64,000 nucleotides of DNA from Bacteroidota bacterium (GCA_029237775.1 JAQZBR010000006.1:194159-258158); one strand, 5' to 3'. Positions 18,644-37,385 are shown, counted from the stretch's first letter. The notes: generated by a model not told the origin, from the sequence alone. Made by a program: numbers and translations.

Positions 18644-18708
18644 TGTGAATTATGTAAGCTTTGAAAAGGTTTATGTAAGAGTTAAAGTAACGAGACCGTT
18701 ACATTTGT
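18644..18708 (+). promoter_or_regulatory. Copy A of a conserved upstream element (TGTGAAT-tATGTAAG...ATGTAAG...TTTG), before the AraC gene
   Basis: One of seven same-orientation copies of the element. It lies ~45 bp upstream of ATG 18753. Confidence 0.4.
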
Positions 18709-18752
18709 TTATATTATCTAATCCCACTAATTTGAAGTTATACATTAAATAT

Positions 18753-19307
18753 ATGGTAAGTGCCCGCTGTAAAGTTGCAGTGAAGGAAGAGCTGAAGAAG
18801 TTGGGCTTGCATTTTATTGTAGTTGATCTTGGTGAAGTTGATATTATGGAAACTTTAACCTCGGAACAGCGATTGCAGGTTGCTGATGCTTTATTTTCAG
18901 TCGGTTTTCAGTTGATGGACGATAAGCGCGCTGTTTTGATTGAAAAGATAAAGAACGCTATCATTGAAATGGTGCATCATTCTGATGAGGTGGTAAAGAT
19001 TAATTTCTCTAATTTTTTAAGTGAGAAGCTTGGACATAACTATACATATCTCGCGAATTTATTTTCAGAAGTGCAGGGAACTACCATTGAGCAGTTTCTT
19101 ATATCCCATAAAATTGAACGAATCAAGGAACTCATAATTTACGGTGAGCTGAACATAACGGAGATCGCGTGGAAAATGAATTATAGCAGTGTGGCTCACC
19201 TTTCAAATCAATTTAAAAAGGCAACAGGACTCTCTCCATCACATTTCAAAAATTTAAAAGACAAAAGAAGAAATCCGATCGAAGAGGTTGGAAATGTTCA
19301 GCCTTAA
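18753..19307 (+). CDS. AraC-family transcriptional regulator
   Basis: C-terminal AraC HTH (..ELNITEIAWKMNYSSVAHLSNQFKKATGLSPSHFKN). The start was moved to the internal Met (MVSARCK) because the conserved promoter element lies inside the longer ORF-track call (18636). Confidence 0.65.
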   Translation: MVSARCKVAVKEELKKLGLHFIVVDLGEVDIMETLTSEQRLQVADALFSVGFQLMDDKRAVLIEKIKNAIIEMVHHSDEVVKINFSNFLSEKLGHNYTYLANLFSEVQGTTIEQFLISHKIERIKELIIYGELNITEIAWKMNYSSVAHLSNQFKKATGLSPSHFKNLKDKRRNPIEEVGNVQP

Positions 19308-19328
19308 ATAAAAGTAAAAGCGTATAAA

Positions 19329-21353
19329 ATGGATACCATCATAACTCAGGAGTCGCAATATTCCAGAAGCCTAATCGAAGCCAGCCTCGATCCTTTAGTA
19401 ACGATCAACACCACCGGTAAGATCACTGATATGAATCAGGCGCTTGCTGATATTACGGGTATCTCGAGAGAGGAATTGACCGGTACGGATTTCTTTGATT
19501 ATTTTACCGAACCACAGAAGGCCAGGGAAGTTTATCAGGAAGTTTTTGCAAAAGGCTCTGTGGCTGATTCACCTTTAACGCTTCGCCACAACGAAGGTAA
19601 GCTTACTGATGTGTCTTTTAACGGTTCTGTATATAAGGACGCATTGGGTAATGTGCTGGGTGTTGTGATTGTTGCCCGGGATGTAACTGAGCAAAAGAGA
19701 ATTGCCAAAGAACTTACTGAGGCGAAGGTGTTTGCAGAACTTGCTGCAGTAATCGCGGAAGAAGCAAAGAGTAAAGCAGAAAGTGCAACGCTTATAGCAG
19801 AGGCTGCTGTTAAATCCAAGCAACAGTTTTTATCGAATATGAGTCATGAGATTCGTACTCCTATGAACGCTATCATTGGATTTACAAAAGTACTCCTGAA
19901 AACGGAACAGAACAGCAAACAGCTTGAATATCTTAATGCAATTAAGACTTCAGGGGACGCGTTGATTGTTCTTATCAATGATATTCTTGATCTTGCAAAA
20001 GTAGATGCCGGTAAAATGACTTTTGCTCATATCCCTTTTAAGCTTTCATCATCCATATCGGCAATGCTTCATTTGTTCGAAACACGGATCCACGAAAAGA
20101 ACCTGGAACTAATTAAAGAATACGATTCTGCAATACCGGATGTACTCGTTGGAGATCCTGTCAGACTCCACCAGATAATATTAAATCTTGTTGGTAACGC
20201 TGTTAAGTTTACTTCTGAAGGAAAGATCAATGTAAGTGTAAAAATGACAGAGGACGATGCTGAATCTGCAACCATTCAATTTGCAATTACTGATACAGGA
20301 ATTGGGATCTCGGAAAATAAGCTTGGTAATATCTTTGATGATTTCCAGCAAGCTACAAGCGGTACATCAAGATTATATGGCGGAACGGGACTTGGACTCG
20401 CAATTGTTAAGCAATTGGTTGAAGCGCAAGGTGGAACAATTAAAGTGAATAGTACTGTTGGCCAAGGATCTACATTTGCGTTCAGTCTACGATTTGTCAA
20501 GACCAAGGCGAAGGCAGAAATTGAAAATGAACCCGGTGTAGAGCTTGAATCAGGTTTAAAGAATGCTAAAATATTAGTGGTTGAGGATATTGTTCTCAAT
20601 CAGCTTTTGATGAAAACCTTATTGGAAGATTTTGGATTTGAGATGGACATTGCATCTAATGGAAAGATAGCTATCGAGAAATTGAAGGAGAATCACTATG
20701 ACATTATTTTGATGGATCTGCAAATGCCTGAGATGAATGGATTTGAAGCTACAGAGTATATCAGGAGCCAGATGAAATCCAAGATACCCATTATTGCACT
20801 TACAGCAGATGTTACAACCGTTGATGTTGAAAAATGTAATGCTGTGGGAATGAACGACTATATTTCCAAACCCATAGACGATAAACTTCTCTATACTAAA
20901 ATACTTAAATACCTTAAGGGCACTGATTACAAAAAAGAAATGAGCCACGTTGTTTCATTCATAGAAGAGGATAATGATGAAAAGTGCACAGATCTTAGTT
21001 ATCTCATGAAGAGGACGAAATCAAACCCTGTGCTGATGATGGAGATGATCTCTTTATATCTTGAGCAAACGCCCCACCTTGTAAATTCAATGAAACACAG
21101 TTTGAAGGCAAAAGACTGGAAGAAGCTACATTCATCTGTGCATAAAATGATTCCCTCATTTTCAATTATGGGCATGACCGTAGATTCCGAGAATATGGCC
21201 AAGAAAGTTCAATCTTACGCAGCGGCACAGGAGCTAACGGATGAGATCCCGGACCTTGTTTACCAAATTGAGAATGTTTGCAGCAAAGCATGTAAAGAAC
21301 TAAATATAGAATTAAACCTGATGAAAAGCCAATTAGATGAAAACAGAAACTAA
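19329..21353 (+). CDS. Hybrid sensor histidine kinase (PAS, coiled coil, HisKA, HATPase_c, receiver, HPt)
   Basis: PAS-like N-terminus, H-box SHEIRTPMNAIIGF, G-box ..DTGIGISE...GGTGLGLAIV, receiver ILVVEDIVLNQ...ILMDLQMPEMNG, and a C-terminal HPt-like HSLKAKDWKKLHSSVHKM. Confidence 0.85.
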   Translation: MDTIITQESQYSRSLIEASLDPLVTINTTGKITDMNQALADITGISREELTGTDFFDYFTEPQKAREVYQEVFAKGSVADSPLTLRHNEGKLTDVSFNGSVYKDALGNVLGVVIVARDVTEQKRIAKELTEAKVFAELAAVIAEEAKSKAESATLIAEAAVKSKQQFLSNMSHEIRTPMNAIIGFTKVLLKTEQNSKQLEYLNAIKTSGDALIVLINDILDLAKVDAGKMTFAHIPFKLSSSISAMLHLFETRIHEKNLELIKEYDSAIPDVLVGDPVRLHQIILNLVGNAVKFTSEGKINVSVKMTEDDAESATIQFAITDTGIGISENKLGNIFDDFQQATSGTSRLYGGTGLGLAIVKQLVEAQGGTIKVNSTVGQGSTFAFSLRFVKTKAKAEIENEPGVELESGLKNAKILVVEDIVLNQLLMKTLLEDFGFEMDIASNGKIAIEKLKENHYDIILMDLQMPEMNGFEATEYIRSQMKSKIPIIALTADVTTVDVEKCNAVGMNDYISKPIDDKLLYTKILKYLKGTDYKKEMSHVVSFIEEDNDEKCTDLSYLMKRTKSNPVLMMEMISLYLEQTPHLVNSMKHSLKAKDWKKLHSSVHKMIPSFSIMGMTVDSENMAKKVQSYAAAQELTDEIPDLVYQIENVCSKACKELNIELNLMKSQLDENRN

Positions 21354-21793: not shown

Positions 21794-21820
21794 AGCATTG
21801 CGATAGCAATGCTTTTTTTA
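21794..21820 (+). terminator. Rho-independent terminator (agcattgc-gata-gcaatgct-ttttttt)
   Basis: Perfect 8-bp stem with a 4-nt loop and a T7 run after the receiver gene. Confidence 0.55.
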
Positions 21821-21851: not shown

Positions 21852-21917
21852 TGTGAATAATGCAAATCATCATTAGAGTTGTGTAACCGTTTCCGGTCCC
21901 TTTACAATCATCTTTGT
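21852..21917 (+). promoter_or_regulatory. Copy B of the conserved upstream element
   Basis: gTGTGAATaATGCAAatc...tgTGTAACcg...catcTTTGtatc, ~30 nt before ATG 21944. Confidence 0.4.
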
Positions 21918-21943: not shown

Positions 21944-23914
21944 ATGAAATCAAGACTAATACTTTTAATATTGCTACTGAATATTTCCTCTTTTGCGGGG
22001 AAGAACCGAGACAACTCAAAATTTGAACGTGCGAACGAGACCTACAAGGCCGGGAATTTTTTTGAGGCTCTTCCTTTATATCTTGAGCTCTATAAAGCTG
22101 ATACCACTAATGCTAATATCAGTTATCTCGTTGGTGACTGTTATTTAAAAGGGCGGAACGGTAAGGCAAGTGCACTTCCATTTCTTATAAAAGCCACATC
22201 CTCGGTATCTCCAACATATAAATCCGGGAATGTTGAAGAAAGGAATGCTCCTGTGTTATCCTATAAGTTATTAGGAGATGCATACCACATCCATTCAAAC
22301 TTTGATAAAGCAATTGCTTCGTATGAAATGTACAAAGCTCAGCTAACCTTGAATCACGGAAAGGATAAATTGAATGTTATGGATGCAGATAGGAAGATCG
22401 CGATGTGTAAATCGGGGAAGAAATTGATGTCAACCCCTGTTCGGGTTAAAATTGAGAATCTTGGTAAAACAACCAATTCGGCCTTTGGCGATTACTCCCC
22501 TGTAATTACTGCTGATCAATCTGAAATGATATTTACTTCACGAAGGAAAGAAAGCACCGGTGGAAACACCTATGATGGCGGAAGGTATTATGAAGATATT
22601 TATATCAGCACCTATAAAGATGGTAACTGGACAACCGCTGAAAATATTGGAGCCCCCATCAATACTAATGAGAACGAAGCAACTGTAGGATTATCTCCTG
22701 ATGGCCAAGAAATATTGATCTATAAGGATGACAATGGTGACGGAAATATTTATTCTACAACCCTTGATGGTGATGTATGGTCAGTCCCCGTTAAAATGAA
22801 TTCAAATATTAATAGCAAGCATTGGGAACCCAGCGCTTTTATTTCTGCTGACGGGTTTTCAATATATTTTACAAGTGATCGTCCGGGCGGTTTTGGCGGA
22901 CGTGATCTTTACAAGAGCGAGCTTACCGAAAAAGGTGATTGGGGTAAGTCTGTTAATATGGGTGCCGAGATCAATACGCCATATGATGAGGATGCGCCTT
23001 TTATACATCCGGATGGGGTAACTCTGTTCTTCAGTTCTAACGGACATAATACAATGGGTGGATTTGATGTTTTCTACACTGCTTTGTCAGAGGACGGCAA
23101 GAAATGGTTAGCACCCGTGAATGTTGGATACCCTGTTAACTCACCGGATGATGACATTTTTTATGTAGTGTCGGCTGATAAGAAAAAAGCATATTACTCA
23201 TCATTCAAAGAAGGTGGTTTTGGCGAGAAAGACAATTACGTGATTACATTTCTCGATGAACAAAAAGCTCCCCTGGTTTTATTAAAAGGCTTTGTGAAAG
23301 ATTCAGACGGAAATGTACCTAAAGGTGTTTTGATTACAGTTACAAACAATGAAACAGGGAAAGTTGTCGGGACTTACAACCCAAATAAAAAAACAGGACA
23401 ATATTTATTTATTCTCCCTGCAGGAAAAAATTACAATATAGCTTATGAGGCTGACGGATATTTGTTTTATTCCGAAAACCGCGAGGTTCCTAAGAACACT
23501 AATTATTATGCAGTATATAAAGACATTCAGCTTCCTCCTGTTACTGTTGGGTCGCGGATTGTTCTGAACAATATCTTTTTTGATTTTGATAAAGCAACGC
23601 TCCGCACGACTTCTAACGTTGAGTTAAAGAACATCATGAAGTTCCTGAATAAATATCCTAAGGTTGTTGTTGAGATAGCCGGATTTACTGATTCTAAAGG
23701 TTCTGCAGAGTATAATTTAAAACTCTCAGAAGAAAGAGCAAAAGCTGTTGTTGCTTATCTGGCAGCTAAAGGAATAGACAATAAAAGAATGATCCCAAAG
23801 GGTTACGGTGAAGCATCTCCTGATGCAAAAAATAATAATGTTGATGGAACTGACAATCCTGAAGGTCGTCAGTTGAACAGAAGAGTTGAGCTGAAGATAG
23901 TGGATATTAAATAG
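21944..23914 (+). CDS. PorE-like OmpA-family protein (TPR + PD40 beta-propeller + carboxypeptidase-regulatory-like + OmpA_C)
   Basis: TPR-like N-terminus, PD40 repeats (FTSDRPGGFGGRDLYKS..), a CRD-like block (VLLKGFVKDSDGNVPKGVLITVTNNETGKVVG) and OmpA_C (FFDFDKATLR...AGFTDSKGSAEYNLKLSEERAKAVVAYL). ATG at 21944 was preferred over the upstream TTG. Confidence 0.7.
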   Translation: MKSRLILLILLLNISSFAGKNRDNSKFERANETYKAGNFFEALPLYLELYKADTTNANISYLVGDCYLKGRNGKASALPFLIKATSSVSPTYKSGNVEERNAPVLSYKLLGDAYHIHSNFDKAIASYEMYKAQLTLNHGKDKLNVMDADRKIAMCKSGKKLMSTPVRVKIENLGKTTNSAFGDYSPVITADQSEMIFTSRRKESTGGNTYDGGRYYEDIYISTYKDGNWTTAENIGAPINTNENEATVGLSPDGQEILIYKDDNGDGNIYSTTLDGDVWSVPVKMNSNINSKHWEPSAFISADGFSIYFTSDRPGGFGGRDLYKSELTEKGDWGKSVNMGAEINTPYDEDAPFIHPDGVTLFFSSNGHNTMGGFDVFYTALSEDGKKWLAPVNVGYPVNSPDDDIFYVVSADKKKAYYSSFKEGGFGEKDNYVITFLDEQKAPLVLLKGFVKDSDGNVPKGVLITVTNNETGKVVGTYNPNKKTGQYLFILPAGKNYNIAYEADGYLFYSENREVPKNTNYYAVYKDIQLPPVTVGSRIVLNNIFFDFDKATLRTTSNVELKNIMKFLNKYPKVVVEIAGFTDSKGSAEYNLKLSEERAKAVVAYLAAKGIDNKRMIPKGYGEASPDAKNNNVDGTDNPEGRQLNRRVELKIVDIK

Positions 23915-24036
23915 TATGAATAATGTAAATGATTAATAGAGTTATGTAATAGAAAAGGCTGTGATAAGATACACCTTTGTAACGTGAAATTTCACAACTG
24001 ACCGCCAGAAGCGGAAATAACAATAAGGATAAAATT

Positions 24037-24795
24037 ATGAAAACTAAAATATTAACAGTAATGACCATTCTTTCTATAGCGTTCGTTTCAGGATGTAAGA
24101 AAGATAAGGATACAGCACCAACGCCTTCGCCTTCACCGTCAACAAACACACAGCATATCCCTTTACAGACAACTTCACAGCCAACAGTTGCTATGGGAGC
24201 TGCAGCAACATTGGCAATTCTTGCAGGCTCAGCGATAAGCAATACAGGTGCAACACACATTACAGGAGATATGGGATTAAGCCCCGGTACATCTATAGGA
24301 GGCTTTCCTCCGGGAATACTTGTTGGGACACAGCATATCAATGATGCAATTGCAACTCAGGCAAAATTGGATCTGACTGCAGCTTATAATGATGCTGCAG
24401 GCAGAACTGCAACTGACATTGTAACCATCGCTGGAAATATTGGCGGATTGACGCTGACTCCTGGTCTTTATAAATCAACGTCTTCACTTGCTGTTTCATC
24501 AGGCGATGTGACCTTTGATGCAAAAGGTAACCCCAATGCAGTATTTATCATCCAGATTGCATCAACGCTTACAACCACTCCGGGTAGAAAAGTTATCTTA
24601 AGTGGCGGTGCTTTGGCTTCAAATATTTTCTGGCAAGTGGGAACATCTGCGACATTCGGGACAACCTCAGTATTTAAAGGTACGGTAATGGCGATGCAGT
24701 CAATTACCTTTAATACAGGTGCTACAATTGACGGAAGGGCTTTGGCAAGAAGCGGAGCGATTGTTATGGCAGGCAATACTATTGTTAAGCAGTAA
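24037..24795 (+). CDS. DUF3494 ice-binding-like family lipoprotein (single domain)
   Basis: Lipobox FVSGC, Pro/Ser/Thr linker, then MGAAATLAILAGSAISNTGATHITGDMGLSPG...DAKGNPNAVFIIQIAS...SNIFWQVGTSATFGTTSVFKGTVMAMQSITFNTGATIDGRALARSGAIVMAGNTI. This matches the IBP/DUF3494 beta-helix family. Confidence 0.7.
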   Translation: MKTKILTVMTILSIAFVSGCKKDKDTAPTPSPSPSTNTQHIPLQTTSQPTVAMGAAATLAILAGSAISNTGATHITGDMGLSPGTSIGGFPPGILVGTQHINDAIATQAKLDLTAAYNDAAGRTATDIVTIAGNIGGLTLTPGLYKSTSSLAVSSGDVTFDAKGNPNAVFIIQIASTLTTTPGRKVILSGGALASNIFWQVGTSATFGTTSVFKGTVMAMQSITFNTGATIDGRALARSGAIVMAGNTIVKQ

Positions 24796-24816
24796 CACTG
24801 CAATCATTAACGGGAA

Positions 24817-24849
24817 CGGGCAATGCTGTCGGCATTGTCCGTTTTTTTT
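24817..24849 (+). terminator. Rho-independent terminator
   Basis: cgggcaatgc-tgtcg-gcattgtccg followed by ttttttttc. Confidence 0.5.
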
Positions 24850-24862
24850 CTTTCAACCAATG

Positions 24863-24928
24863 TGTGAATCATGTAAGTTCTTTATGTAGTTGTGTAACAC
24901 ATTCGTCCATCTGTTGAAGCACCTTTGT
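24863..24928 (+). promoter_or_regulatory. Copy C of the conserved upstream element
   Basis: TGTGAATcATGTAAGttctttatgtagttgTGTAACac...caccTTTGtatc, ~35 nt before ATG 24964. Confidence 0.4.
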
Positions 24929-24963
24929 ATCGTGAAAATTAATTCACACCAAAAAATCTAAAA

Positions 24964-26571: not shown

Positions 26572-26599
26572 TCTTTAAGTAAGTTTAGTTCGAGTGTCG

Positions 26600-26637: not shown

Positions 26638-26643
26638 TAGATG

Positions 26644-26708
26644 TGTGAATAATGCAAGTTATATGCTTAGTTCTGTAACATATCCGGAACTAAATAAAGG
26701 ACATTTGT
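26644..26708 (+). promoter_or_regulatory. Copy D of the conserved upstream element
   Basis: TGTGAATaATGCAAGtt...ttcTGTAACat...gacaTTTGttgc, ~35 nt before ATG 26743. Confidence 0.4.
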
Positions 26709-29700: not shown

Positions 29701-30330
29701 CTGAGTGTAATCAAATCGGTTAATACAGCAACGCCTTTCTTTGGAACACAAGTGACCTTTGTGATCACCGCAACCAATAATGGCAGTGGAACTGCAACAG
29801 GCGTAGTCGTAAATGATGTTCTTCAAAACGGGTATGTTTATGTTTCCTCTTCAGTAACTGCAGGTTCTTATGATGTACTGACAGGTGAATGGGTTGTCGG
29901 TAATATGATCGATAATTCAACTGAAACATTGACCATGACAGCAACTGTAGTTGAAGGTGGTAATTATGTTAACACGGCAATTATTTATGGAAATGAATCA
30001 GATCCTGATATGACAAATAATAATTCATCGGTGGAAACATTCCCAACCGATTTCTTTATCCCTGAAGGATTTTCTCCTAATGGTGATGGCATCAACGATC
30101 TTTTTGTGATCCGCGGGATCCGTAATTATCCGGAAAACACATTTGTGATCTTCAACCGTTGGGGTGATAAAGTTTTTGAGGCTAATCCATATACAAGTGA
30201 ATGGGATGGTAAATGTGGGAAGGGCTTAAGGCTCGGAGGTGAGCAGCTGCCTATCGGAACATATTTCTATATCCTTGACCTGGGTAATGATACTGACATC
30301 ATTAAAGGAACTATCTATCTGAACAAATAA
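26743..30330 (+). CDS. Large T9SS type-B cargo: two DUF3494 ice-binding-like domains, ~6 Ig-like repeats, DUF11, gliding-motility-associated C-terminal domain
   Basis: The N-terminal ~430 aa are ~70% identical to the 535-aa neighbour. Six ~95-aa repeats (..GSGLTYQWRKG(A/T)VN(L/M)VNGGNISG..NYNVI..GSCG.DTS). DUF11-like NSDLSVIKSVNTATPFFGTQVTFVITATNNGSGTATGVVVNDVL. C-terminus FFIPEGFSPNGDGINDLFVIRGI...WDG is a type B CTD. Start taken at MKRKALLLL (26743); the ORF-track start is 26725. Confidence 0.75.
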   Translation: MKRKALLLLTAAILLLPKINLAQAPVLGTAADFVLFTSVGALSNTGISQLTGNVGSNSGSSTGFGNVNGVMHNNNGTTAAAAADLNLGYNQLNSAIPTFFPAPLLGNGQTLNAGVYSISGASTLNLDLTLDGQGNPNAIFIFQIQGPFSANANAKVKLINDAQACNVFWKVEGLVSLASAVTMRGTIVANNAAINMSTNDTLEGRALSTAGAITIDGTLAYKPIGCGSAVLTGPLAPTLGATACYTLFTSIGPVTNAGVTNVTGDIGSDNGTTTGFNPLLVVGMIHGTPDGSTALAASDLISVYNYLNGLPYDIELLYPAQFGNNLVLTPHTYRMNSAATFTDTLYLNGEGNPNAVFVIQINGALATSTYSKVKLINGTQAKNVFWKVEGAVSINDYSVFRGTIVANNGAISMTTGVYLDGRALTTTGAVNTAAITAIMPPGCGATATSPVISLQPNDQLVCAGDSAGFSVTAVGTGLSYQWRRGTVNLVNGGNISGATSAVLSINPVSAADTAYNYNVIVSGMSSPNDTSDNVSLGITNAIAITSEPMGQTLCPGDSAFFTVMAPGSGLTYQWRKGNVDLINGGNISGATSATLTIDPSSIADTAFNYNVIVTGSCGSDTSVYAFLMITNGVSITSEPMNQISCLGSSVSFATVASGSGLTYQWRKGTVNMVNAGNISGVNTAMLSVNPVTGSDAALNYNVIINGSCVSDTSVNVSLTVDSIRITTEPSNEFVCIGTPASFSAVAAGSGMSYQWRKGAVNMVNGGNISGVNTSVLTINPSTISDIATNYNLIVTGTCGNDTSLNVSLNIDSTRIVSVSPNQSVCLGNSIAFSVNALGSGLTYQWRKGAVNLVNGGNISGATTSVLTINPATILDNATNYNVIVSGSCGNDTSANVTLNVVTAPTATAGSNSPVCTGSAINLTAVTVSGANYSWSGPAGYSSSTQNPVILSASFSDAGNYSLTVSQGGCTSFPSVVAVVVNNCNSDLSVIKSVNTATPFFGTQVTFVITATNNGSGTATGVVVNDVLQNGYVYVSSSVTAGSYDVLTGEWVVGNMIDNSTETLTMTATVVEGGNYVNTAIIYGNESDPDMTNNNSSVETFPTDFFIPEGFSPNGDGINDLFVIRGIRNYPENTFVIFNRWGDKVFEANPYTSEWDGKCGKGLRLGGEQLPIGTYFYILDLGNDTDIIKGTIYLNK

Positions 30331-30363
30331 CATCGATCTAATAACACAATTAAAATAAAGAAA

Positions 30364-31305
30364 ATGAAAACATTTAAAACAATAGGCATCGTGTTGATTT
30401 CGGCACTTGGCGGTATAACAGCCAATGCACAGCAAGCCCCGATGTACACTCATTACATGTATAACACACTTTCTGTAAACCCCGCATACGCAGGGAGCAG
30501 AGAAGCTCTGACTGTCACTGCCCTCCACCGTTCGCAGTGGGTTGATTTCAAAGGAGCTCCTGTTACACAAACCCTGACTCTTCATGCTCCTTTAAGAAAT
30601 GAGCATATTGGTGTCGGGCTGTCATTATCAAATGATAAAATTGGCCCCAATCACAATATTTCGGCTTTTGCAAACTTTGCGTACATAATGAAAGTTTCCG
30701 CAAAATCGAAGCTTGCCCTGGGATTGAGTGCTGGTGCCAATATCTTTCAATCAAATGTAAATTCGATTCAGTTGGAGGGACAGGAAACTGATCCTGTTTT
30801 TCAGACGAATATCAATAACCATGTGACACCTAATTTTGGTTTGGGTGCCTATTATTACAGGGAGCGGTTTTATGCGGGGATATCTGCACCAAATCTTCTT
30901 CAGAATAATTATTCAGTGATAAAGGTGGACGGAAACACTTTAATTGGTAAAGAGCAAAGACACTTTTTCCTGATTGCCGGGACTGTGATCCCTATTTCAA
31001 GCGACCTGGCTTTTAAACCGACAACACTCGTTAAAGTTACATCCGGTGCACCGGTTCAGGCTGATCTTACAGCATCTTTCGTTATCATGAAAAAACTTCT
31101 GATAGGTGCGATGTACCGCTCAGGTGATGCTTTCGGTGGACTGGTTGGTGTGGATATTACCGAACAATTTCATGTAGGTTATTCATACGATTGGTCTTAC
31201 GGATTAAAAACAGCCAAGTACAACCAGGGAAGTCATGAAATTGTATTAAGATACGATTTCATCTATCCAAGCAAGAAACAGATCCATTCACCCAGATATT
31301 TTTAA
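30364..31305 (+). CDS. PorP/SprF-family T9SS outer-membrane protein
   Basis: Signal peptide then QQAPMYTHYMYNTLSVNPAYAGSREALTVTALHRSQW (family motif). C-terminal ..HEIVLRYDFIY. It is a paralogue of the 5230..6114 gene. Confidence 0.8.
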   Translation: MKTFKTIGIVLISALGGITANAQQAPMYTHYMYNTLSVNPAYAGSREALTVTALHRSQWVDFKGAPVTQTLTLHAPLRNEHIGVGLSLSNDKIGPNHNISAFANFAYIMKVSAKSKLALGLSAGANIFQSNVNSIQLEGQETDPVFQTNINNHVTPNFGLGAYYYRERFYAGISAPNLLQNNYSVIKVDGNTLIGKEQRHFFLIAGTVIPISSDLAFKPTTLVKVTSGAPVQADLTASFVIMKKLLIGAMYRSGDAFGGLVGVDITEQFHVGYSYDWSYGLKTAKYNQGSHEIVLRYDFIYPSKKQIHSPRYF

Positions 31306-31323
31306 TACCATATAAGAAACAAA

Positions 31324-33261
31324 ATGAAGAAATTATATATACCATTAGTATTATTAACAGCGCTCTCCCTGAGTCTTAGCGCTCAGGAGAAATCACGGAA
31401 AGAACGTGAAGGTGATAAATATGCCTTTCGCTACTCTTTCGATAAAGCAATCGAATCGTATACTCATGCCAAGAATCTTAGTCCGGATGGGCAAAGAAGG
31501 CTCGCGGAAAGTTACAGTAAGATGGATCAGAATAAAGAAGCTGAAATCGTCTATGCAAAACTGATCGGTTCAGGCATCGGCCTCATTGCTGAAGATTATT
31601 ATAATTATGCAATGGTAATGAAAGCCAATGCGAAATATGATGAGGCTAATAAAACAATGGATAAATTCAGCGAGCAAAAGCCGGATGATCTGCGCGCAAA
31701 GAGTTATGCTGGTTCTAAAGCATCCTTTGCTGATTTGCTGAAAGATAATGGCAGCTTTAAAGTTGAAACCTTAAAGGTGAATACCGCTGCACAGGATTTC
31801 GGAACTTCTTTCTATAAAGACCAAATTGTATTCGCTTCCACAAGGTCAGCTGCCAAGATGGTTAAACGATCATATAACTGGAACGGTATGCCTTTCCTTA
31901 ATATGTTCGTTGCAGATAAGGATGGTACCCAGTTAAAAGATCCTAAAAGATTCGATAACAGCCTTAACGGTAAAATGCATGATGGCCCTGGCAGCTTTAG
32001 CAGAGATGCAACCTTTATGGCATACACTAAAAATCATTTTAAAGACAAAAGCAAAGATAAAGTCGTAGAGCTTCAGATTTGTTTCAGCACTTTCAGAGAC
32101 GGAAAATGGTCAGAGGAAGAGCCTTTTAATTATAATAATAATGAATATTCTGTAGGTCAGCCATTTCTGACTGAAGATGGTAATACAATGTACTTTACAA
32201 GTGATATGCCGGGCGGGTACGGAGGCAGTGACCTTTACAAAACCTCAAGAATGCCGGGTAGTGCATGGAACAAACCTGAAAATCTTGGCAATAGTATTAA
32301 CACTGAAGGGGATGAAATGTTTCCATTTGTGGAATCTGAAAAAGGTGTACTGTACTTCTCTTCCAATGGTTTATCCGGATTGGGCGGAACAGATATTTTT
32401 ACAAGTGTGATCACTAATGGTGGATATGGCTTACCTAAAAATTCGGGTAGCCCATTGAATACACAATACGATGATTTTGCATGTATCGTTGACAGCAAAA
32501 CACATAAAGGGTATTTTTCATCGAACAGGTCAGGCGGTAGCGGTGCTGACGATATTTACGGTGTTGAAGTTTTGAAGGTTGCTGATATTCAGAAGAGGAT
32601 CGAAGGCTTTGCACGAGACAGGAACTTAAAGGTTCTGGGCGGTGTATCAATAACACTTCTTGATGAATCGAATAAAGTACTGGATACAATTACTACTAAC
32701 GCGGATGGCTCATTCAGCTTCAAAGTTGCTTCGAATACCAATTATTTACTTACCGGTAAGAAAAAGAAATTCAATGACGGAAATAATGTTGCAAATACCA
32801 ATGGCAATGAAGCGGTTGTCAAAGCTGATGTCATCCTGCTCACTAAAGCGGAAGCCATTGCCTCTGAAATAAAGGAGGGAAAAGATCTCGCTGAACTTCT
32901 TGCTTTGAATACAATTTTCTTTGATTATGGAAAATCTGATATCCGTAAGGATGCGGAGCCTGATCTCGATAAGATCATTGAGATTATGAATGCGTATCCT
33001 GAAATGATTGTGGAATTTCGTTCATACACAGATTGCAGATCAACAAAAGAGTTTAATCAGTTATTATCAGAACGGAGAGCCAAAGCGTCTTCTGAATATG
33101 TAAGACAAAAGATCTCTAATCCTTCCAGGATCCATGGTAAAGGATATGGAGAACCTAAGCTCGCAAGTTTATGCCCTTGTGAAGGGCCTGTGCTTTCTGA
33201 ATGTTTAGAAGGTGAACACCAGAAGAACCGGAAAACAGAATTTATTATCGTTAAAAAATAA
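31324..33261 (+). CDS. PorE-like OmpA-family protein (TPR + PD40 propeller + CRD-like + OmpA_C)
   Basis: PD40 repeats (FTSDMPGGYGGSDLYKT.., FSSNGLSGLGGTDIFTS..), a CRD-like block (IEGFARDRNLKVLGGVSITLLDESNKVLDT), and OmpA_C (IFFDYGKSDIRKDAEPDLDKI...RSYTDCRS...SERRAKA). Confidence 0.7.
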   Translation: MKKLYIPLVLLTALSLSLSAQEKSRKEREGDKYAFRYSFDKAIESYTHAKNLSPDGQRRLAESYSKMDQNKEAEIVYAKLIGSGIGLIAEDYYNYAMVMKANAKYDEANKTMDKFSEQKPDDLRAKSYAGSKASFADLLKDNGSFKVETLKVNTAAQDFGTSFYKDQIVFASTRSAAKMVKRSYNWNGMPFLNMFVADKDGTQLKDPKRFDNSLNGKMHDGPGSFSRDATFMAYTKNHFKDKSKDKVVELQICFSTFRDGKWSEEEPFNYNNNEYSVGQPFLTEDGNTMYFTSDMPGGYGGSDLYKTSRMPGSAWNKPENLGNSINTEGDEMFPFVESEKGVLYFSSNGLSGLGGTDIFTSVITNGGYGLPKNSGSPLNTQYDDFACIVDSKTHKGYFSSNRSGGSGADDIYGVEVLKVADIQKRIEGFARDRNLKVLGGVSITLLDESNKVLDTITTNADGSFSFKVASNTNYLLTGKKKKFNDGNNVANTNGNEAVVKADVILLTKAEAIASEIKEGKDLAELLALNTIFFDYGKSDIRKDAEPDLDKIIEIMNAYPEMIVEFRSYTDCRSTKEFNQLLSERRAKASSEYVRQKISNPSRIHGKGYGEPKLASLCPCEGPVLSECLEGEHQKNRKTEFIIVKK

Positions 33262-33282
33262 AAATTCAATTTGAAATCAGAG

Positions 33283-33317
33283 CACCATCCCCAACAGGAT
33301 GGTGTTTTTGTTTTTAC
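33283..33317 (+). terminator. Rho-independent terminator
   Basis: caccatcc-ccaaca-ggatggtg followed by tttttgttttt. Confidence 0.55.
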
Positions 33318-33341: not shown

Positions 33342-33406
33342 TGTGAATTATATAACTCTTCTCTGAATTGTATAACATTTACAGGTGATAAAAGACTCAC
33401 TTTTGT
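33342..33406 (+). promoter_or_regulatory. Copy E of the conserved upstream element (degenerate: TATATAAC/TATAAC variants)
   Basis: tTGTGAATtATATAACtc...tTGTATAACat...tcacTTTTGtatc, ~40 nt before ATG 33448. Confidence 0.35.
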
Positions 33407-33447: not shown

Positions 33448-34053
33448 ATGAAATCAATAAGACTTATCATCGCATCTATTACCTTGCTTCTGGCAGGTTC
33501 ACTTCAAGCTCAGGTATCTGTTAACGTTAACATAGGATCGCCTCCGCAGTGGGGTCCGGCCGGGTACACTGATGTAAGATATTATTATTTGCCTGATGTG
33601 GAAGCATACTACGATGTCCAGTCGTCAATGTTCATCTATTTCGGTAATGGGATATGGATACACGAAAGATATCTTCCCGGTCCTTATCGCAATTATGATC
33701 TGTACGGAGGTTACAAAGTAGTAATGACAGATTACAGAGGCGACAGGCCATATGTGTATTTCGATGAATACAAAGTGAAATACAAAAAGGGATACAGAGG
33801 TAAGCCGCAAAAAAACATTGGACATAATCCCGGCAAAGGGAATTCTAATTCAGGTCACGGCCAGAAACATACTTCGAACCAGCAGCCGGGTAATAACGGC
33901 TCATCACATAAGGCAAACAATACTAAGCCTGCTAATAATCAACACCAGGAGAATCGTAAAGCAAGTCCTCAGCAAAATGGAGGGGGAGGCAATGATAAAT
34001 CTCACACCGGAGGAAAGCAAGGGGGCCATGGTGGCGGAGGTAAGAAAAAGTAG
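33448..34053 (+). CDS. Secreted protein with a ~110-aa Tyr/Pro-rich globular region and a Gly/His/Asn/Gln/Lys-rich disordered (hydrophilin- or dehydrin-like) tail
   Basis: Signal peptide MKSIRLIIASITLLLAGSLQAQ. C-terminal ~90 aa read ..GHNPGKGNSNSGHGQKHTSNQQPGNNGSSHKANNTKPANNQHQENRKASPQQNGGGGNDKSHTGGKQGGHGGGGKKK. Start moved to the internal ATG 33448 because the conserved promoter element lies inside the longer ORF-track call. Confidence 0.5.
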   Translation: MKSIRLIIASITLLLAGSLQAQVSVNVNIGSPPQWGPAGYTDVRYYYLPDVEAYYDVQSSMFIYFGNGIWIHERYLPGPYRNYDLYGGYKVVMTDYRGDRPYVYFDEYKVKYKKGYRGKPQKNIGHNPGKGNSNSGHGQKHTSNQQPGNNGSSHKANNTKPANNQHQENRKASPQQNGGGGNDKSHTGGKQGGHGGGGKKK

Positions 34054-34078: not shown

Positions 34079-34144
34079 TGTGAATCATGTAACATATTCA
34101 ATAAGTTCTGTAACACATCTGCATTCACGATAGTTCACCTTTGT
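34079..34144 (+). promoter_or_regulatory. Copy F of the conserved upstream element
   Basis: TGTGAATcATGTAACat...ttcTGTAACac...caccTTTGtcaa, ~40 nt before ATG 34184. Confidence 0.4.
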
Positions 34145-34183: not shown

Positions 34184-34405
34184 ATGGAAGACAATACAAA
34201 AATCAAAGTTGATTGGGATGAAACAAAAGAGAAATTGAAGATGCAATTCAATAATCTGTCCTGTAATGACCTGCAGCAATTAGTTAACAAACAGGATGCG
34301 ATACTAGACAAGATCCAGCTAAAGATTGAAAAAACAAAAGAAGAGATCCAAAAACTTATTTCGGGGGATAGCTTTCCTGACATTATCATCAAGCCGATCA
34401 TTTAA
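34184..34405 (+). CDS. Small hydrophilic CsbD-like general-stress-type protein (hypothetical)
   Basis: 73 aa, highly charged, KVDWDETKEKLKMQFNNLSCNDLQ resembles the CsbD-family N-terminus (WDxxKGxxKQ..L.DDDL). Weak call. Confidence 0.35.
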   Translation: MEDNTKIKVDWDETKEKLKMQFNNLSCNDLQQLVNKQDAILDKIQLKIEKTKEEIQKLISGDSFPDIIIKPII

Positions 34406-34445: not shown

Positions 34446-35096
34446 ATGAAAAATAAATCCATAATTACCGCATTGTTCCTGTCTTGTGCAGCTATTGTAA
34501 ATGCACAGGAAAGTTCAAATGAAACCGATAACAGAGAAAAGCTGCAATTCGGAATAAAGGCAGGACTAAACTATTCAAATGTATATGATGAGAACAGTGA
34601 AGACTTCCGGGCTGATGCCAAATTTGGTGCTGCTGCCGGTGTTTCCCTCGCTATACCTTTCGGAAAATATCTTGGTTTGCAGCCTGAAGCTTTATTCTCT
34701 CAAAAAGGATTCAAGGGAAGCGGAATGATGCTTGGAAATGAATACAGTTTTACCCGCACCACGACTTATATTGATTTTCCTTTACAGTTAGCCTTTAAGC
34801 CGAGCGAGTTCTTTACTTTATTCGCAGGACCTCAGTATTCTTATCTGCTAAGTCAGCGCGATGTTTTTACGAATACATCTACCAGCTTTATACAGGAGAA
34901 TGAATTTAAGAATGATAACATCCGTAAAAACGTATTCGGTGCGGTAGGAGGATTGGATATCAATCTTAAGCATATCACATTGGGTGCAAGAGTAGGCTGT
35001 GATCTTCAAAACAATAATGGTGACGGAACATCCAGTACACCGCGTTATAAAAACGTATGGTTCCAGGGAACAGTAGGTTATGCTTTTTATAAATAA
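34446..35096 (+). CDS. Outer-membrane beta-barrel protein (OmpW/OmpA-like small barrel family)
   Basis: Signal peptide ..AAIVNAQ, alternating amphipathic strands, and a C-terminal ..WFQGTVGYAFYK aromatic terminus. Confidence 0.6.
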   Translation: MKNKSIITALFLSCAAIVNAQESSNETDNREKLQFGIKAGLNYSNVYDENSEDFRADAKFGAAAGVSLAIPFGKYLGLQPEALFSQKGFKGSGMMLGNEYSFTRTTTYIDFPLQLAFKPSEFFTLFAGPQYSYLLSQRDVFTNTSTSFIQENEFKNDNIRKNVFGAVGGLDINLKHITLGARVGCDLQNNNGDGTSSTPRYKNVWFQGTVGYAFYK

Positions 35097-35137
35097 CATA
35101 AAACATAAAACATAAACATAACATAAACACAAAAACA
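35095..35137. repeat. Short tandem repeat (CATAAAA/CATAAA)x~5
   Basis: aacataaaacataaaacataaacataacataaacacaaaaacac in the 44-bp gap between the two barrel genes. Confidence 0.5.
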
Positions 35138-35140
35138 CTT

Positions 35141-35719
35141 ATGAAAACAATATTTCTTTTAATTATACTATCCATTTCACTTTCCGCTGCAGTGAATGCT
35201 CAGGACAGACCCGCTCCTGAAAAGTATGGCAAAACCCTTAACCTTGGTGCGGGTGTTGGATATTACGGATATGTTGGGCATCCTTTACCAGTAGTGTCTA
35301 TGAACTTCGAATTTGACATAGCAAGAAATTTTACCCTTGCACCATTCATCGGAGCTTACACTTACAGGAACAGGTATTATTGGGGTAACCCGGGACAGCC
35401 TAAATATGACCCTTCATACAGATATTATTCATACCGCGTCACTGCGGTACCGGTCGGAATAAAAGGGACCTATTATTTTGATCAACTTTTTCATGCAAAT
35501 GAAAAATGGGATTTTTATGCAGCAGGCTCAGTAGGCTTTGTATTCAGGAGCGTTGTCTGGGATAACGATTACTATGGTGACAGGCATGTAAATCAAACCG
35601 CGAGTCCCTTATACCTGGATGCCCACGCAGGAGCTGAGTATCACTTCAGTACTAAAGCAGGCGTATTTCTTGACCTTTCTACAGGAGTGTCGACAATAGG
35701 AATTGCAATTCACTTTTAA
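35141..35719 (+). CDS. Outer-membrane beta-barrel protein (small porin-like)
   Basis: Signal peptide ..AAVNAQ, Tyr/Gly-rich strands, C-terminal ..IGIAIHF. Confidence 0.55.
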   Translation: MKTIFLLIILSISLSAAVNAQDRPAPEKYGKTLNLGAGVGYYGYVGHPLPVVSMNFEFDIARNFTLAPFIGAYTYRNRYYWGNPGQPKYDPSYRYYSYRVTAVPVGIKGTYYFDQLFHANEKWDFYAAGSVGFVFRSVVWDNDYYGDRHVNQTASPLYLDAHAGAEYHFSTKAGVFLDLSTGVSTIGIAIHF

Positions 35720-35732
35720 CATTAAACAAACT

Positions 35733-35924
35733 ATGAAAAAATTTAGAATCATTGCTGCTTTTGCATGCAGTATAATATTAATTGGATATTCATCCTGCCT
35801 GGTCGTAGTACCACATGGATCAAACAGTGGTAGTAAAAAAGGCTGGAACAAGAATTCAAATAACCCACATCATCCGAATACTACTAATCCGGGTCACACA
35901 AAACAAAAAAATAAGAATAAATAA
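35733..35924 (+). CDS. Small secreted/lipoprotein-like hypothetical protein with a basic Asn/His/Lys-rich tail
   Basis: MKKFRIIAAFACSIILIGYSSC... followed by GSNSGSKKGWNKNSNNPHHPNTTNPGHTKQKNKNK. Confidence 0.3.
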   Translation: MKKFRIIAAFACSIILIGYSSCLVVVPHGSNSGSKKGWNKNSNNPHHPNTTNPGHTKQKNKNK

Positions 35925-35947
35925 ACACAAAAAAACAACATACAAAA

Positions 35948-36100
35948 ATGGGAAACTTACTTTACACGATCGCAGTTATTCTTGTTGTTATCTGGGCCAT
36001 TGGGTACCTCGGATTTCAGACTGGCGGAATCATTCACATCCTGCTTGTAATTGCTGTCATTGCTGTGCTTTTTAGAGTAATAAGAGGCAATAGATTATAA
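35948..36100 (+). CDS. lmo0937-family small membrane protein (50 aa), absent from the ORF track
   Basis: Codon-by-codon translation gives MGNLLYTIAVILVVIWAIGYLGFQTGGIIHILLVIAVIAVLFRVIRGNRL*: two TM helices around a GGxIH motif and an RG(R/N) tail, as in the lmo0937/NF033488-type ~50-aa family. Confidence 0.55.
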   Translation: MGNLLYTIAVILVVIWAIGYLGFQTGGIIHILLVIAVIAVLFRVIRGNRL

Positions 36101-36159
36101 TTTAATTTATTAAAAAAGGATGTGTGACAGATACTGTTGCGCATCCTTTGTTTTTTCAC

Positions 36160-37320
36160 ATGAGCTTAAAACTATTTGTTATTTTAATTTCTCTGGTAGT
36201 AAATTTATCGGCCGCTCTTTACGGACAGGAGAACCCAGGGTCTGGTAAATCACCTTCCCGGGTAAGTGAAATTCCTCACCGAACCCCACGTGAATTATGG
36301 ATGTGGCCACACCGTGGGTTTGCCATGATCAGTACTCGTGAGCGAAAGATCAACTACGATACTGCTTATATTAAATCGTTCTATAAAAGGATTGTAATCA
36401 CAGTACCGGTGTCTACGCGTTTTTTAAAATTCACTCTCTCGGATCAGAAGACGGGAAATAAGTTAACCTTCGTGCCGAACCTTCAATATAATCTCGGCTT
36501 ATGTGTGAGCTCAAGATGGGCAAGTTTTATTTTGAATTCGGGAGTCAAGGTGCTTACAGGAGATTCAGTTAAAAAGGGAAAGACAACCTATCGTGATTAT
36601 CAGCTTCATCTGTATGGAAGGAAAATCAATACAGATTTGTTTGTACAGCAGTATAAAGGGTTTTATATCAGAAACTCTCAAACTTACTCTGCATACACAG
36701 GCGATAAGCCATACTCGGTCCGATCTGACGTTAAAGCTTTGAATATCGGTGCCAGCTCAGTATATGTAGTTAATCACAGAAGATTTTCTTACGGTAATGC
36801 ATTCGCCTTTGTTGAACAGCAGAAAAAAAGTGCAGGCTCACTCCTAATAGGAGTATATTATACCTATTTCGCTGCAAGCGGAGATCAATCAATGGTACAA
36901 CAACCTTTCAGGAACAGCTTTGATACCCTCTCCATAATTAAAAAAGGATATTCTCATAATGCAGGGTTGAATATCGGTTATATATATACAAGAGTGTTTT
37001 TTAAAAAATGGTACGCGACTGCATGTGTGACGCAAGGGGTAGGTGGTGAGAGCTCGGTTTATACAAGAGACGATAACACTCGTTATTCCCAGTTCTCCGC
37101 AGGTGCCGGAAAGTTAAGTGCTAGCTTCACATTCCGATATGACAATACCCGTTATTTCATAGGAACCATGGGTATGTTTGATGCCTTTCTTTTCAGAGGA
37201 AAAGTGAATTCGACATTTGATTATAGTTTTGGTAAGCTTATGATGTATGCAGGATATAGGTTCTCAGTTCTTAAAGCTGAAAAGAGGATATTGAGGAAGC
37301 TGAAGCTGATCGATTATTGA
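36160..37320 (+). CDS. Hypothetical secreted protein, possibly a beta-barrel OMP
   Basis: Signal peptide MSLKLFVILISLVVNLSAALYGQ, rich in Tyr/Gly/Ser alternations. The ORF-track start 36124 is a GTG, so the ATG at 36160 was preferred. Confidence 0.45.
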   Translation: MSLKLFVILISLVVNLSAALYGQENPGSGKSPSRVSEIPHRTPRELWMWPHRGFAMISTRERKINYDTAYIKSFYKRIVITVPVSTRFLKFTLSDQKTGNKLTFVPNLQYNLGLCVSSRWASFILNSGVKVLTGDSVKKGKTTYRDYQLHLYGRKINTDLFVQQYKGFYIRNSQTYSAYTGDKPYSVRSDVKALNIGASSVYVVNHRRFSYGNAFAFVEQQKKSAGSLLIGVYYTYFAASGDQSMVQQPFRNSFDTLSIIKKGYSHNAGLNIGYIYTRVFFKKWYATACVTQGVGGESSVYTRDDNTRYSQFSAGAGKLSASFTFRYDNTRYFIGTMGMFDAFLFRGKVNSTFDYSFGKLMMYAGYRFSVLKAEKRILRKLKLIDY

Positions 37321-37333
37321 ATCCGGATTAACC

Positions 37334-37385
37334 TGTGAATCATGTAAGAAATTTGCAGGATGCTGTAACAGGATACCTCCTTTGT
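37334..37385 (+). promoter_or_regulatory. Copy G of the conserved upstream element (short-spacer variant)
   Basis: TGTGAATcATGTAAGaa...tgcTGTAACagg...ctccTTTGttatc, ~45 nt before ATG 37429. Confidence 0.4.

Follow-up and report, generated by a model that had tools for sequence, protein, structure and literature searches.

A recurrent operator-promoter element and a candidate HMA-like/AraC-type regulator of stress-type genes in Bacteroidota

The locus and its element copies

Here we describe a conserved DNA element of about 65 bp in a 64,000-nucleotide stretch from a Bacteroidota bacterium (GCA_029237775.1, JAQZBR010000006.1:194159-258158), hereafter the window, together with the AraC-type protein that is our candidate for reading it. 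The element precedes genes for the AraC-type protein itself, a PorE-like OmpA protein, three Ice_binding (DUF3494) proteins, a secreted protein, a CsbD/YjbJ-like protein and a YtxH protein (Table 1). There are eight copies rather than the seven of the initial annotation, which had missed copy 3 in front of the smallest Ice_binding gene; the shared orientation that it described holds for all eight.

The copies stand out clearly from the background. The exact core TGTGAATnATG(T/C)AA(G/C) occurs five times in the window against an expectation of 0.01, and a mismatch-tolerant search adds copies 2, 3 and 6. The full pattern, TGTGAATNATRYAA-N15/16-TRTAA-N25/26-TTTG, is matched seven times, and not once in 100 shuffles. 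A softened position-weight scan returns exactly eight sites with scores of 41-62 bits, all on the plus strand between 18.6 and 37.4 kb; no other site in the window exceeds 8 bits, and the shuffle maximum was 13.6 bits.

One geometry describes all eight copies: TGTGAATnATGTAAx, a spacer of 15 nt (14 once), TGTAAx, a second spacer of 24-25 nt, and TTTG. The distal block shared by the copies is AATGTGTGAATnATGTAAC, followed by the proximal box TGTAAC and then by TTTG. The variable spacer of 11-25 nt reported earlier is an artefact of registration—in copy 1 the third box is TGTAAG (18674-18679) and not GTAAC, and in copy 8 the relevant TTTG is the second one (37395-37398), which moves the end of the element from 37385 to 37398. 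From a copy to the downstream start codon the distance is 17-57 nt. Terminator-like hairpins with T-runs lie 16-40 nt before four of the copies (2, 4, 5 and 6), which suggests that each of these opens a new transcription unit.

Copy 1 heads a unit of three genes, for the AraC-type protein, a hybrid histidine kinase and a stand-alone receiver in this order, as assigned with Pfam and NCBIfam; in NCBIfam the kinase matches BarA/ArcB/TorS-like models into its Hpt region. Most of the gene identities first proposed for the locus are recovered by Pfam (HTH_18, OmpA/PD40, Ice_binding with Por_Secre_tail or CHU_C, YtxH, AI-2E), but the CsbD identity of the 73-aa protein behind copy 7 holds only through its homologues. 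This protein has no Pfam CsbD match of its own and a weak YjbJ match in searches of Pfam and NCBIfam; by BLAST it groups with homologues that do match Pfam CsbD (E = 1.4e-12). The genes at 34446-36075, downstream of this CsbD-like gene, may be co-transcribed with it.

Table 1. Element copies, the genes behind them and associated features in the window.
Feature	Position	Strand	Description
Copy 1	18644..18707	+	42 bits; distal TGTGAATTATGTAAG, proximal TGTAAG, -7 box TACATTTG; TTG start of AraC gene 24 nt downstream
Candidate regulator, 191 aa	18732..19307	+	HMA-like N-terminal domain, linker helix, 7-helix AraC-type DNA-binding domain; TTG start
Hybrid histidine kinase	19329..21353	+	PAS, HisKA, HATPase_c, REC, Hpt-like tail (Pfam); second operon gene
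Stand-alone receiver, 144 aa	21337..21771	+	Pfam Response_reg, E = 3e-18; third operon gene
Hairpin before copy 2	21794-21813		Terminator-like, with T-run
Copy 2	21852..21916	+	47 bits; precedes TPR/PD40/CarboxypepD_reg/OmpA (PorE-like) gene 21944-23914
Copy 3	23915..23979	+	44 bits; degenerate (TATGAAT...TGTAAT); precedes 252-aa Ice_binding (DUF3494) gene 24037-24795 (Pfam Ice_binding, E = 8e-64)
Hairpin before copy 4	24812-24846		Terminator-like, with T-run
Copy 4	24863..24927	+	62 bits, closest to consensus; precedes gene 24964-26571 (two Ice_binding domains and Por_Secre_tail)
Hairpin before copy 5	26598-26631		Terminator-like, with T-run
Copy 5	26644..26707	+	45 bits; precedes 1201-aa Ice_binding/Ig/DUF11/CHU_C gene 26725-30330
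PorP/SprF	30364-31305	+	After the 1201-aa Ice_binding gene of copy 5
Second OmpA protein (PorE-like)	31324-33261	+	After PorP/SprF
Hairpin before copy 6	33279-33308		Terminator-like, with T-run
Copy 6	33342..33405	+	48 bits; precedes secreted protein gene 33448-34053, Gly/His/Asn/Gln-rich tail
Copy 7	34079..34143	+	57 bits; precedes 73-aa CsbD/YjbJ-like gene 34184-34405
Copy 8	37334..37398	+	41 bits; precedes YtxH gene 37429-37707
Holin-like gene	37707-38066	+	After YtxH (copy 8 unit)
Open reading frame of unknown function	38054-38455	+	Copy 8 unit
AI-2E transporter	38445-39539	+	Pfam; copy 8 unit

The element across Bacteroidota

We followed the element beyond the window in two samples. The regulator-anchored set consists of the window and the best 80 of more than 560 loci (one genome per species), taken with 10-kb flanks to give 81 sequences and 1.26 Mb; its labels include Flavobacterium, Chryseobacterium, Aequorivita, Chitinophagaceae, Cytophagales, Prolixibacteraceae, Paludibacter and Odoribacter. 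The second sample is independent of the regulator—it comes from a pattern scan of metagenome contigs and holds at least 120 loci with at least 205 sites, and none of the loci listed belongs to the contig of the window. Both samples together contain at least 440 instances in 201 loci.

A three-block weight matrix built from 112 pattern matches, used at a threshold of 25 bits, finds 235 sites in the regulator-anchored set, a density of 0.19 per kb around the AraC gene; shuffled sequence (7.6 Mb) never scores higher than 6.3 bits. The sites of this set are intergenic in 218 cases (93%), compared with 20% of random positions, and 69% of them lie at most 100 nt upstream of an open reading frame on the same strand, compared with 4.5% at random; from TTTG to the start codon the median distance is 36 nt. 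The blocks keep a rigid distance from one another: 188 sites share a single spacing and 40 are off by one base (228 of 235 within 1 nt). Conservation also extends to positions that the seed pattern had left free, including AAtG before TGTGAA, the T after the distal TGTAAC and A(A/G)TT before the proximal TGTAAC.

The copies had been read at the outset as promoter-linked sites of one co-regulated gene set and not as a dispersed repeat. The intergenic bias, the fixed orientation and start-codon distance, and the orthologous positions across orders all support that claim. By these sequence features the element appears to be a promoter class found across Bacteroidota, and neither a dispersed repeat nor an RNA.

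Promoter and operator architecture

The position of the sigma-A -7 box, TAnnTTTG, is known from Flavobacterium psychrophilum, where it extends from -12 to -5 relative to the transcription start (PMC9723704). The coordinates that we give for the element are derived from that position and place the putative start 5 nt past the G of TTTG. On this scale the downstream block, cAnCTTTG, occupies -12 to -5 and resembles a near-consensus sigma-A -7 box, with which it agrees at 6 of the 7 specified positions. The flanks of the TTTG had previously been thought not to fit TAnnTTTG; most of the block does fit, as the A six bases before the TTTG end—another position left free in the seed pattern—is found in 99% of the 112 instances; the one departure is at the first T, for which C is the usual substitute (C 59%, T 17%).

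The alignment of the element contains no conserved -33 TTTG box; TGTAAC takes its place at -39 to -34. The missing box fits an activator-dependent sub-class of sigma-A promoters. A scan for E. coli-type sigma-70 promoters gave 56 matches where 59.7 were expected, and is uninformative, as expected for Bacteroidota.

Two half-sites make up the upstream part. The proximal half-site, A(A/G)TTnTGTAAC, spans -44 to -34 and is conserved over 11 bp, while the distal half-site, AATGTGTGAATnATGTAAC, spans -73 to -54, is the stronger of the two and is conserved over 19 bp. Compared with itself, the frequency matrix has similarity peaks for shifts of 21 bp (4.13) and 9 bp (3.55), and the best dyad symmetry reaches 2.78; because both peaks exceed the dyad score, the three TGT(G/A)AA boxes are best described as direct repeats at offsets 0, +9 and +30, as the initial annotation had it. 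A palindromic operator was rejected on the same scores. An equivalent description is that of two tandem direct-repeat half-sites placed 21 bp, or two helical turns, apart.

Three further observations concern individual promoters. In the promoter of the regulator in the window, a perfect inverted repeat, GTAAC-gagacc-GTTAC (18687-18702), sits between the proximal box and the -7 box; it is not kept in the other 80 loci, and may be a second operator or a product of chance. In four loci from glacier and sea-ice Flavobacterium (L067, L069, L077 and L080) both half-sites are kept, but ATTTTTAC replaces cAnCTTTG about 40 nt before the AraC start, which suggests that the autoregulatory promoter in these four may have a weakened or shifted box. 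Finally, among the listed entries of the F. psychrophilum transcription start site table there is one look-alike of the element, THC0290_T_0932, which we discarded for its wrong spacing (18 nt).

The candidate regulator

The protein encoded behind copy 1 is a member of the AraC/XylS family by its domains: it matches Pfam HTH_18 (63.7 bits, E = 1.9e-17; cut-off 33.6) and HTH_AraC (31.7 bits; cut-off 26.6). NCBIfam yields only generic, sub-threshold AraC-family matches, and a sequence search of the PDB finds matches to the DNA-binding domain only, of which the closest are AraT, YesN and a fragment of a hybrid two-component system (HTCS) protein. In an AlphaFold2 model of the whole protein (predicted local distance difference test score, pLDDT, 80), the DNA-binding domain superposes in Foldseek on AraT, YesN, AdpA, GadX, SoxS, MarA and Rob, with target-normalised TM-scores of 0.67-0.80 for the first six.

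The N-terminal 62 residues are predicted to form a beta-alpha-beta-beta-alpha-beta fold (strands 2-6, 28-31, 35-38 and 60-61; helices 11-23 and 44-56). Foldseek matches this domain to the metallochaperones GolB (4y2i), Atx1 (2xmv) and HAH1 (1fee), with target-normalised TM-scores of 0.66-0.74 and root-mean-square deviations of 2.3-2.6 over 65 columns; modelled alone, the domain has a lower pLDDT of 65. The Pfam HMA threshold (PF00403) is missed—the best score is 17.7 bits against a cut-off of 24.8, and is reached by paralogues only—and we therefore call the domain HMA-like rather than HMA. Among 48 homologues, the orthologues carry an invariant loop, M8-x-S10-x-R12-C13-K14, at the place of the MxCxxC loop of HMA proteins, with a single conserved Cys. 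In the same alignment the helix-turn-helix (HTH) helices are invariant, in line with the invariance of the DNA motif.

Conservation of the regulator is very high overall. More than 8000 homologues were found, the best 120 of which are 80-88% identical, and across orders identity is 78-88% (82-87% in an order-versus-family comparison), nearly the level within families (84-93%), a range that is biased upward because the 80 loci are best matches. This identity between orders shows strong constraint on the protein. When sequences are clustered at 50% identity, the orthologues fall into a single cluster, and the next relatives, which have the same architecture of about 186 aa, are found at 60-65%. 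Several paralogues have the complete MxCxxC loop (MVCxRC; MVCIRCK), in contrast to MVSxRC in the orthologue. In the metagenome loci L083, L116, L117, L119, L132, L147, L153, L155, L171, L179 and L194 a paralogue neighbours element-bearing genes, and it often sits directly before a 119-aa cupin-like gene.

The true start of the gene is a TTG codon 21 nt upstream of the first ATG, the codon that callers of open reading frames choose (the difference is 18732-18752 in the window). The start is TTG in 71 of the 80 loci, ATG in 6 and CTG in 2, and the seven-residue N-terminal extension, KLYIKYM, is kept through synonymous changes and forms strand beta-1. Such a conserved weak start may keep the basal level of the regulator low.

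Within the 135 nt before the AraC ATG, most of the 80 loci have the element at the same position. In all, 68 of the 81 loci carry it in front of the AraC gene, in Flavobacteriales, Chitinophagales, Cytophagales and Bacteroidales alike, and the AraC gene is the sole DNA-binding gene conserved in the neighbourhood across the 80 loci. The proposal that the AraC gene carrying the element is the best candidate controller is strengthened by its association with the element in so many loci.

Conserved operon partners

The other conserved genes of the neighbourhood would make up a phosphorelay. A hybrid kinase follows the AraC gene in 66 of the 80 loci; its core is 65-74% identical and its sensor N-termini are variable (630 to 1900 aa). 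A stand-alone receiver of 144-145 aa follows the kinase in 59 of the 80, with 62-71% identity. Many of the loci that lack a kinase or receiver are contigs that end too early.

Upstream of the cluster in the window there are two large SpoIIE/PP2C phosphatase genes (8681-11872 and 13285-15390), one with Y_Y_Y/Reg_prop and one with TPR N-termini, which had been put forward as further controllers. Each has homologues in just one of the 80 loci, which does not support them as controllers; the kinase and the receiver are the partners that are conserved. No sigma or anti-sigma gene is present among the conserved neighbours in the 80 loci.

Regulon content

The genes preceded by the element fall into recurrent families in the regulator-anchored loci, and the same families return in the regulator-independent sample. 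Using family names from Pfam and counts from this second, motif-anchored metagenome sample, the largest groups are Ice_binding/DUF3494 (at least 37 instances), CsbD-like proteins (at least 27, some of which match Pfam CsbD), stand-alone receivers and PAS proteins (at least 26), and OmpA proteins with or without a Gly-zipper (at least 24). These are followed by homologues of the protein with the Gly/His/Asn/Gln-rich tail behind copy 6 (at least 13), MlaE (at least 12), YtxH and WXXGXW proteins (at least 8 each), OMP_b-brl_2 (at least 7), YceI (at least 5), Usp and AI-2E (at least 4 each), DUF5670, which is lmo0937-like (at least 3), and the OsmY-like BON proteins (at least 2). The genes behind the element further include some for small secreted or membrane proteins without a family name, and singletons that we take, by eye from their N-terminal sequences, to be manganese-catalase-like and desaturase-like.

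The general-stress character first suggested for the gene set is thus found across the phylum, in CsbD, YtxH, Usp, BON, YceI, DUF5670/lmo0937-like proteins, OmpA with Gly-zipper and MlaE, and the suggestion that DUF3494 ice-binding-like genes belong to it is matched by their recurrence. As judged from these families, the putative regulon has the small stress and osmoprotective proteins of a general stress regulon.

No AraC orthologue appears, among the matches listed, in any of the 34 motif-anchored loci of at least 8 kb, which indicates that the regulon is dispersed and extends beyond a local island. At about 13136 of locus L081, from a Flavipsychrobacter metagenome-assembled genome, a copy of the element precedes an open reading frame whose N-terminus looks like sigma-54 (RpoN); if this RpoN-like frame is genuine, the regulon would lead on to a second programme of transcription in the Flavipsychrobacter lineage.

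A proposed mechanism and its alternatives

Our preferred explanation, which we hold to be probably correct, is that each copy is an activator-dependent sigma-A promoter fused to the operator of one transcription factor, read by the HMA-like/AraC protein. That the AraC-type protein, or a paralogue, binds the element and activates through it is likewise likely, at somewhat better than even confidence. In this scheme the regulator would bind both half-sites head-to-tail, with one two-HTH domain per half-site. The promoter-proximal subunit would replace the missing -33 contact and recruit RNA polymerase, in the manner of AraC at araI1-I2 and of class II MarA/SoxS. The regulator would also activate its own operon, which includes the hybrid kinase and the single-domain receiver, and this would amount to positive feedback.

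The signal would reach the regulator through these partners. Phosphate is expected to flow along a His-Asp-His-Asp relay that ends on the single-domain receiver, and the phosphorylated receiver, the single Cys of the HMA-like domain, or both, would switch the regulator on. As the regulator has no receiver domain of its own, we infer that the receiver acts by protein-protein contact. The output would be a dispersed regulon of small stress and envelope proteins, which in the window also recruits a 9-kb cluster of type-IX-secreted DUF3494 proteins.

Several points weigh against this explanation. The C that replaces T at -12 is preferred beyond mere tolerance, and could point to a different sigma factor. 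The distal half-site has an extra AATGTGTG arm without a proximal counterpart, and the two TGTAAC boxes show a weak dyad symmetry; for these two reasons, the two-monomer model is not the sole geometry to consider. In 13 of the 81 loci no element was detected directly upstream of the AraC gene. Paralogues (59-69% identical, of the same length and with identical recognition helices) are also linked to the element, in about 13 of the motif-anchored loci (at least 120 in all), and orthologue, paralogue or both could read the site. The assignment of the binder draws on autoregulation, co-localisation and architecture, and the AraC gene could be a mere member of the regulon.

The last of these points leads to a different transcription factor as the binder—a LytTR-type or OmpR-type response regulator, or the CxxC paralogue—with the AraC operon as only its conserved target, which we consider rather unlikely. 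LytTR- and OmpR-type regulators read direct repeats with periods of 21 or 10-11 bp, 21 bp being typical of LytTR, and the period of the element would suit a LytTR regulator. The paralogues that flank element-bearing genes and the lack of an AraC orthologue in the 34 longer motif-anchored loci can be read in the same direction. However, the conserved genes near the sites include neither a LytTR nor an OmpR regulator, the AraC gene is the one conserved DNA-binding gene there, and the element stands before it in most loci. The absence of AraC from short motif-anchored loci is what a dispersed regulon would produce, and a paralogue as binder is a variant of our explanation rather than a true rival.

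The preferred -12 C bears instead on the sigma factor. The initial annotation had entertained an alternative-sigma site, and in its extracytoplasmic function (ECF) form this would make TGTAAC the -35 box and the TTTG block the -10 box, with the upstream boxes auxiliary. The AAC within TGTAAC is typical of ECF -35 boxes, such as those of B. subtilis sigma-X, and the rigid spacing to the downstream block and the C favoured over the sigma-A consensus T would both be accommodated. Yet no (CGT)-like -10 block lies 16-17 nt after TGTAAC, where positions -33 to -13 carry at most 0.3 bits; the sole conserved downstream block is 20-21 nt away and resembles the sigma-A type. The strongest conservation of the element, at -73 to -54, is beyond the reach of a sigma factor, and the neighbourhood offers no conserved sigma or anti-sigma gene. 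An ECF promoter is accordingly improbable, and the alternative-sigma proposal finds no support in the block structure.

The overlap of the proximal site with the -33 position allows another interpretation, in which the AraC protein is a repressor that occludes this region and the genes are de-repressed under stress. The probable orthologous operon of F. psychrophilum and its neighbours show weak expression throughout the 32 conditions of a published survey (PMC9723704), as repression might also produce. A self-repressed, silent operon would nevertheless supply too little repressor, which fits the silence of the whole set poorly. Moreover, the lack of a -33 box and the sub-consensus -7 box are features of activator-dependent promoters, and AraC/XylS proteins on tandem direct repeats that abut the -35 region are typically activators. 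We infer activation, and regard repression as very unlikely.

Finally, the multiple near-identical copies within 19 kb might recall a mobile repeat of the miniature inverted-repeat transposable element type, or a structured RNA leader, without a promoter role, but this is scarcely credible given that only discrete boxes and not the spacers are conserved, that there are no terminal inverted repeats, and that the sites are overwhelmingly intergenic, with orientation and start-codon distance fixed and orthologous positions kept across orders. An RNA element was also tried as a candidate and rejected: Rfam searched over 17-40 kb at E <=1 gave only a chance CrcZ match, and the alifold energy of the eight copies is -0.3 kcal/mol.

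Beyond the reading of single promoters, we tentatively suggest—as a possibility, and one that we hold to be less likely than not—that a general stress (dormancy or survival) response throughout Bacteroidota has its master switch in the element and its HMA-like/AraC regulator. Such a switch would be an activator-built counterpart of sigma-B, sigma-S and EcfG, driven by a phosphorelay whose receiver partners a degenerate metallochaperone-fold domain, possibly with a redox- or metal-sensitive Cys. If this is true, the DUF3494 surface proteins are members of a stress regulon.

Relation to known regulatory systems

The mechanism proposed here is of an already known type, in which an activator of the AraC family sits on tandem direct repeats beside the -35-equivalent region. 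At araI1-araI2 of the E. coli araBAD promoter, AraC occupies two direct-repeat half-sites of about 17 bp with centres 21 bp apart, the weaker proximal site lying at -35. The element resembles this arrangement, as well as the sites of RhaS/RhaR, XylS and MelR, in its two direct-repeat half-sites, its 21-bp period and its weaker proximal site abutting the -35 region. It also resembles araI1-I2 in its span of about -73 to -34 and in the use of an AraC/XylS activator with two HTH motifs, the binding of which is here a prediction. The differences lie mostly outside the operator: AraC has 292 aa and a cupin sugar-binding domain, whereas the protein described here has 191 aa, a 62-aa HMA-like ferredoxin fold and a phosphorelay in its operon. 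The promoter appears to be of the Bacteroidota -7 type (TAnnTTTG), and the genes would form a dispersed stress and envelope regulon rather than one catabolic operon.

MarA, SoxS and Rob are a second point of comparison. These are small AraC-family activators of dispersed stress regulons, marRAB is autoactivated, and their asymmetric boxes of about 20 bp occupy class I positions, near -60, and class II positions, where they overlap -35, as do the half-sites here. MarA and SoxS, however, act as monomers on a single box and are controlled by abundance, while here two boxes always stand in fixed tandem and the regulator has an extra sensor-like domain with a dedicated kinase and receiver. The coupling of a histidine-kinase phosphorelay to an AraC-type output domain is shared with Bacteroides HTCS proteins and with YesN/AraT. 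Those systems combine receiver and AraC domain in one fused protein; here kinase, receiver and AraC-type protein are three separate proteins, with an HMA-like domain in place of the receiver. HTCS proteins, moreover, control polysaccharide utilisation loci and not stress genes.

In its content the regulon overlaps with those of sigma-B in Firmicutes, sigma-S in Proteobacteria and PhyR-NepR-EcfG in Alphaproteobacteria—CsbD/YjbJ, YtxH, BON/OsmY-like, Usp, YceI, YiaD-like OmpA with Gly-zipper, DUF5670/lmo0937-type proteins and, as judged by eye, a Mn-catalase-like protein are in common. As in these general stress systems, the candidate regulator appears to be positively autoregulated, and as in the alphaproteobacterial pathway, kinases would work together with a single-domain receiver. 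The systems differ in that a sigma factor is swapped in the known cases, while here a putative activator operator lies before what looks like a housekeeping-type -7 box. With the HMA metallochaperones GolB, Atx1, HAH1 and CopZ the N-terminal domain shares the predicted ferredoxin-like fold, a conserved loop at the MxCxxC place and, in the paralogues, an MVCxRC loop; unlike them, the orthologues have MxSxxC with one Cys, and the domain is fused to a DNA-binding domain.

What appears to be new is the HMA-like sensor domain, the split design of kinase, receiver and AraC-type protein, the sub-class of promoters with a -7 box only, the very high conservation of the regulator, and a general-stress-type regulon that includes ice-binding-like proteins. 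The full-text literature that we searched, to which subscription-only papers did not belong, contains no description of the motif, of the regulator or of a general stress regulator of Bacteroidota. To our knowledge, Bacteroidota lack RpoS and sigma-B, and the protein is a candidate stress regulator for this phylum. The analysis supplies a precise consensus for the operator and the promoter, names one protein as candidate regulator together with its kinase and receiver partners, and lists the members of the putative regulon. It also gives a first handle on the regulation of DUF3494 ice-binding-like proteins; the putative activator-dependent sub-class of Bacteroidota promoters, with a -7 box and no -33 box, could serve in expression tools.

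An expression lead in Flavobacterium psychrophilum

Published expression data may connect to this system. The genome of F. psychrophilum THCO2-90 has a run of genes composed of THC0290_1150 (AraC-family, 540 nt), THC0290_1151 (a small open reading frame), THC0290_1152, which is annotated as a "hybrid two-component sensor kinase/response regulator", and THC0290_1153, a 435-nt response-regulator gene (PMC9723704). By gene order and sizes only, this run is probably the orthologous operon. THC0290_1150-1153 and at least 30 neighbours (1129-1210) are among the 103 coding sequences (4.4%) that were weakly expressed in all conditions of the survey, which covered growth phases, controlled stresses and host-like environments (PMC9723704, Table S4). 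Among the products of these neighbours are outer-membrane proteins, a UspA-family protein, an ABC permease and ATPase, and a 364-aa permease; a 2.3-kb glycosyltransferase gene is another neighbour (PMC9723704). Cold or desiccation stress, as suggested in the initial annotation, or osmotic stress would be candidate triggers. If the orthology holds, the system would be a tightly shut, positively autoregulated switch with a trigger outside the usual laboratory stresses, and the element and its regulator may explain a block of genes that is silent in every laboratory condition tried in F. psychrophilum.

Other features of the locus

Just past the last element-driven operon of the window, at 39936-40499, lies a gene for a cyclic nucleoside monophosphate-binding protein with a Crp/Fnr-like N-terminal domain; no copy of the element precedes it. 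Within 24037-33261, three successive DUF3494 genes grow in size (252, 535 and 1201 aa), and each has its own copy of the element. Two of the three have type IX secretion C-terminal domains, which are of different kinds—Por_Secre_tail in one and CHU_C in the other.

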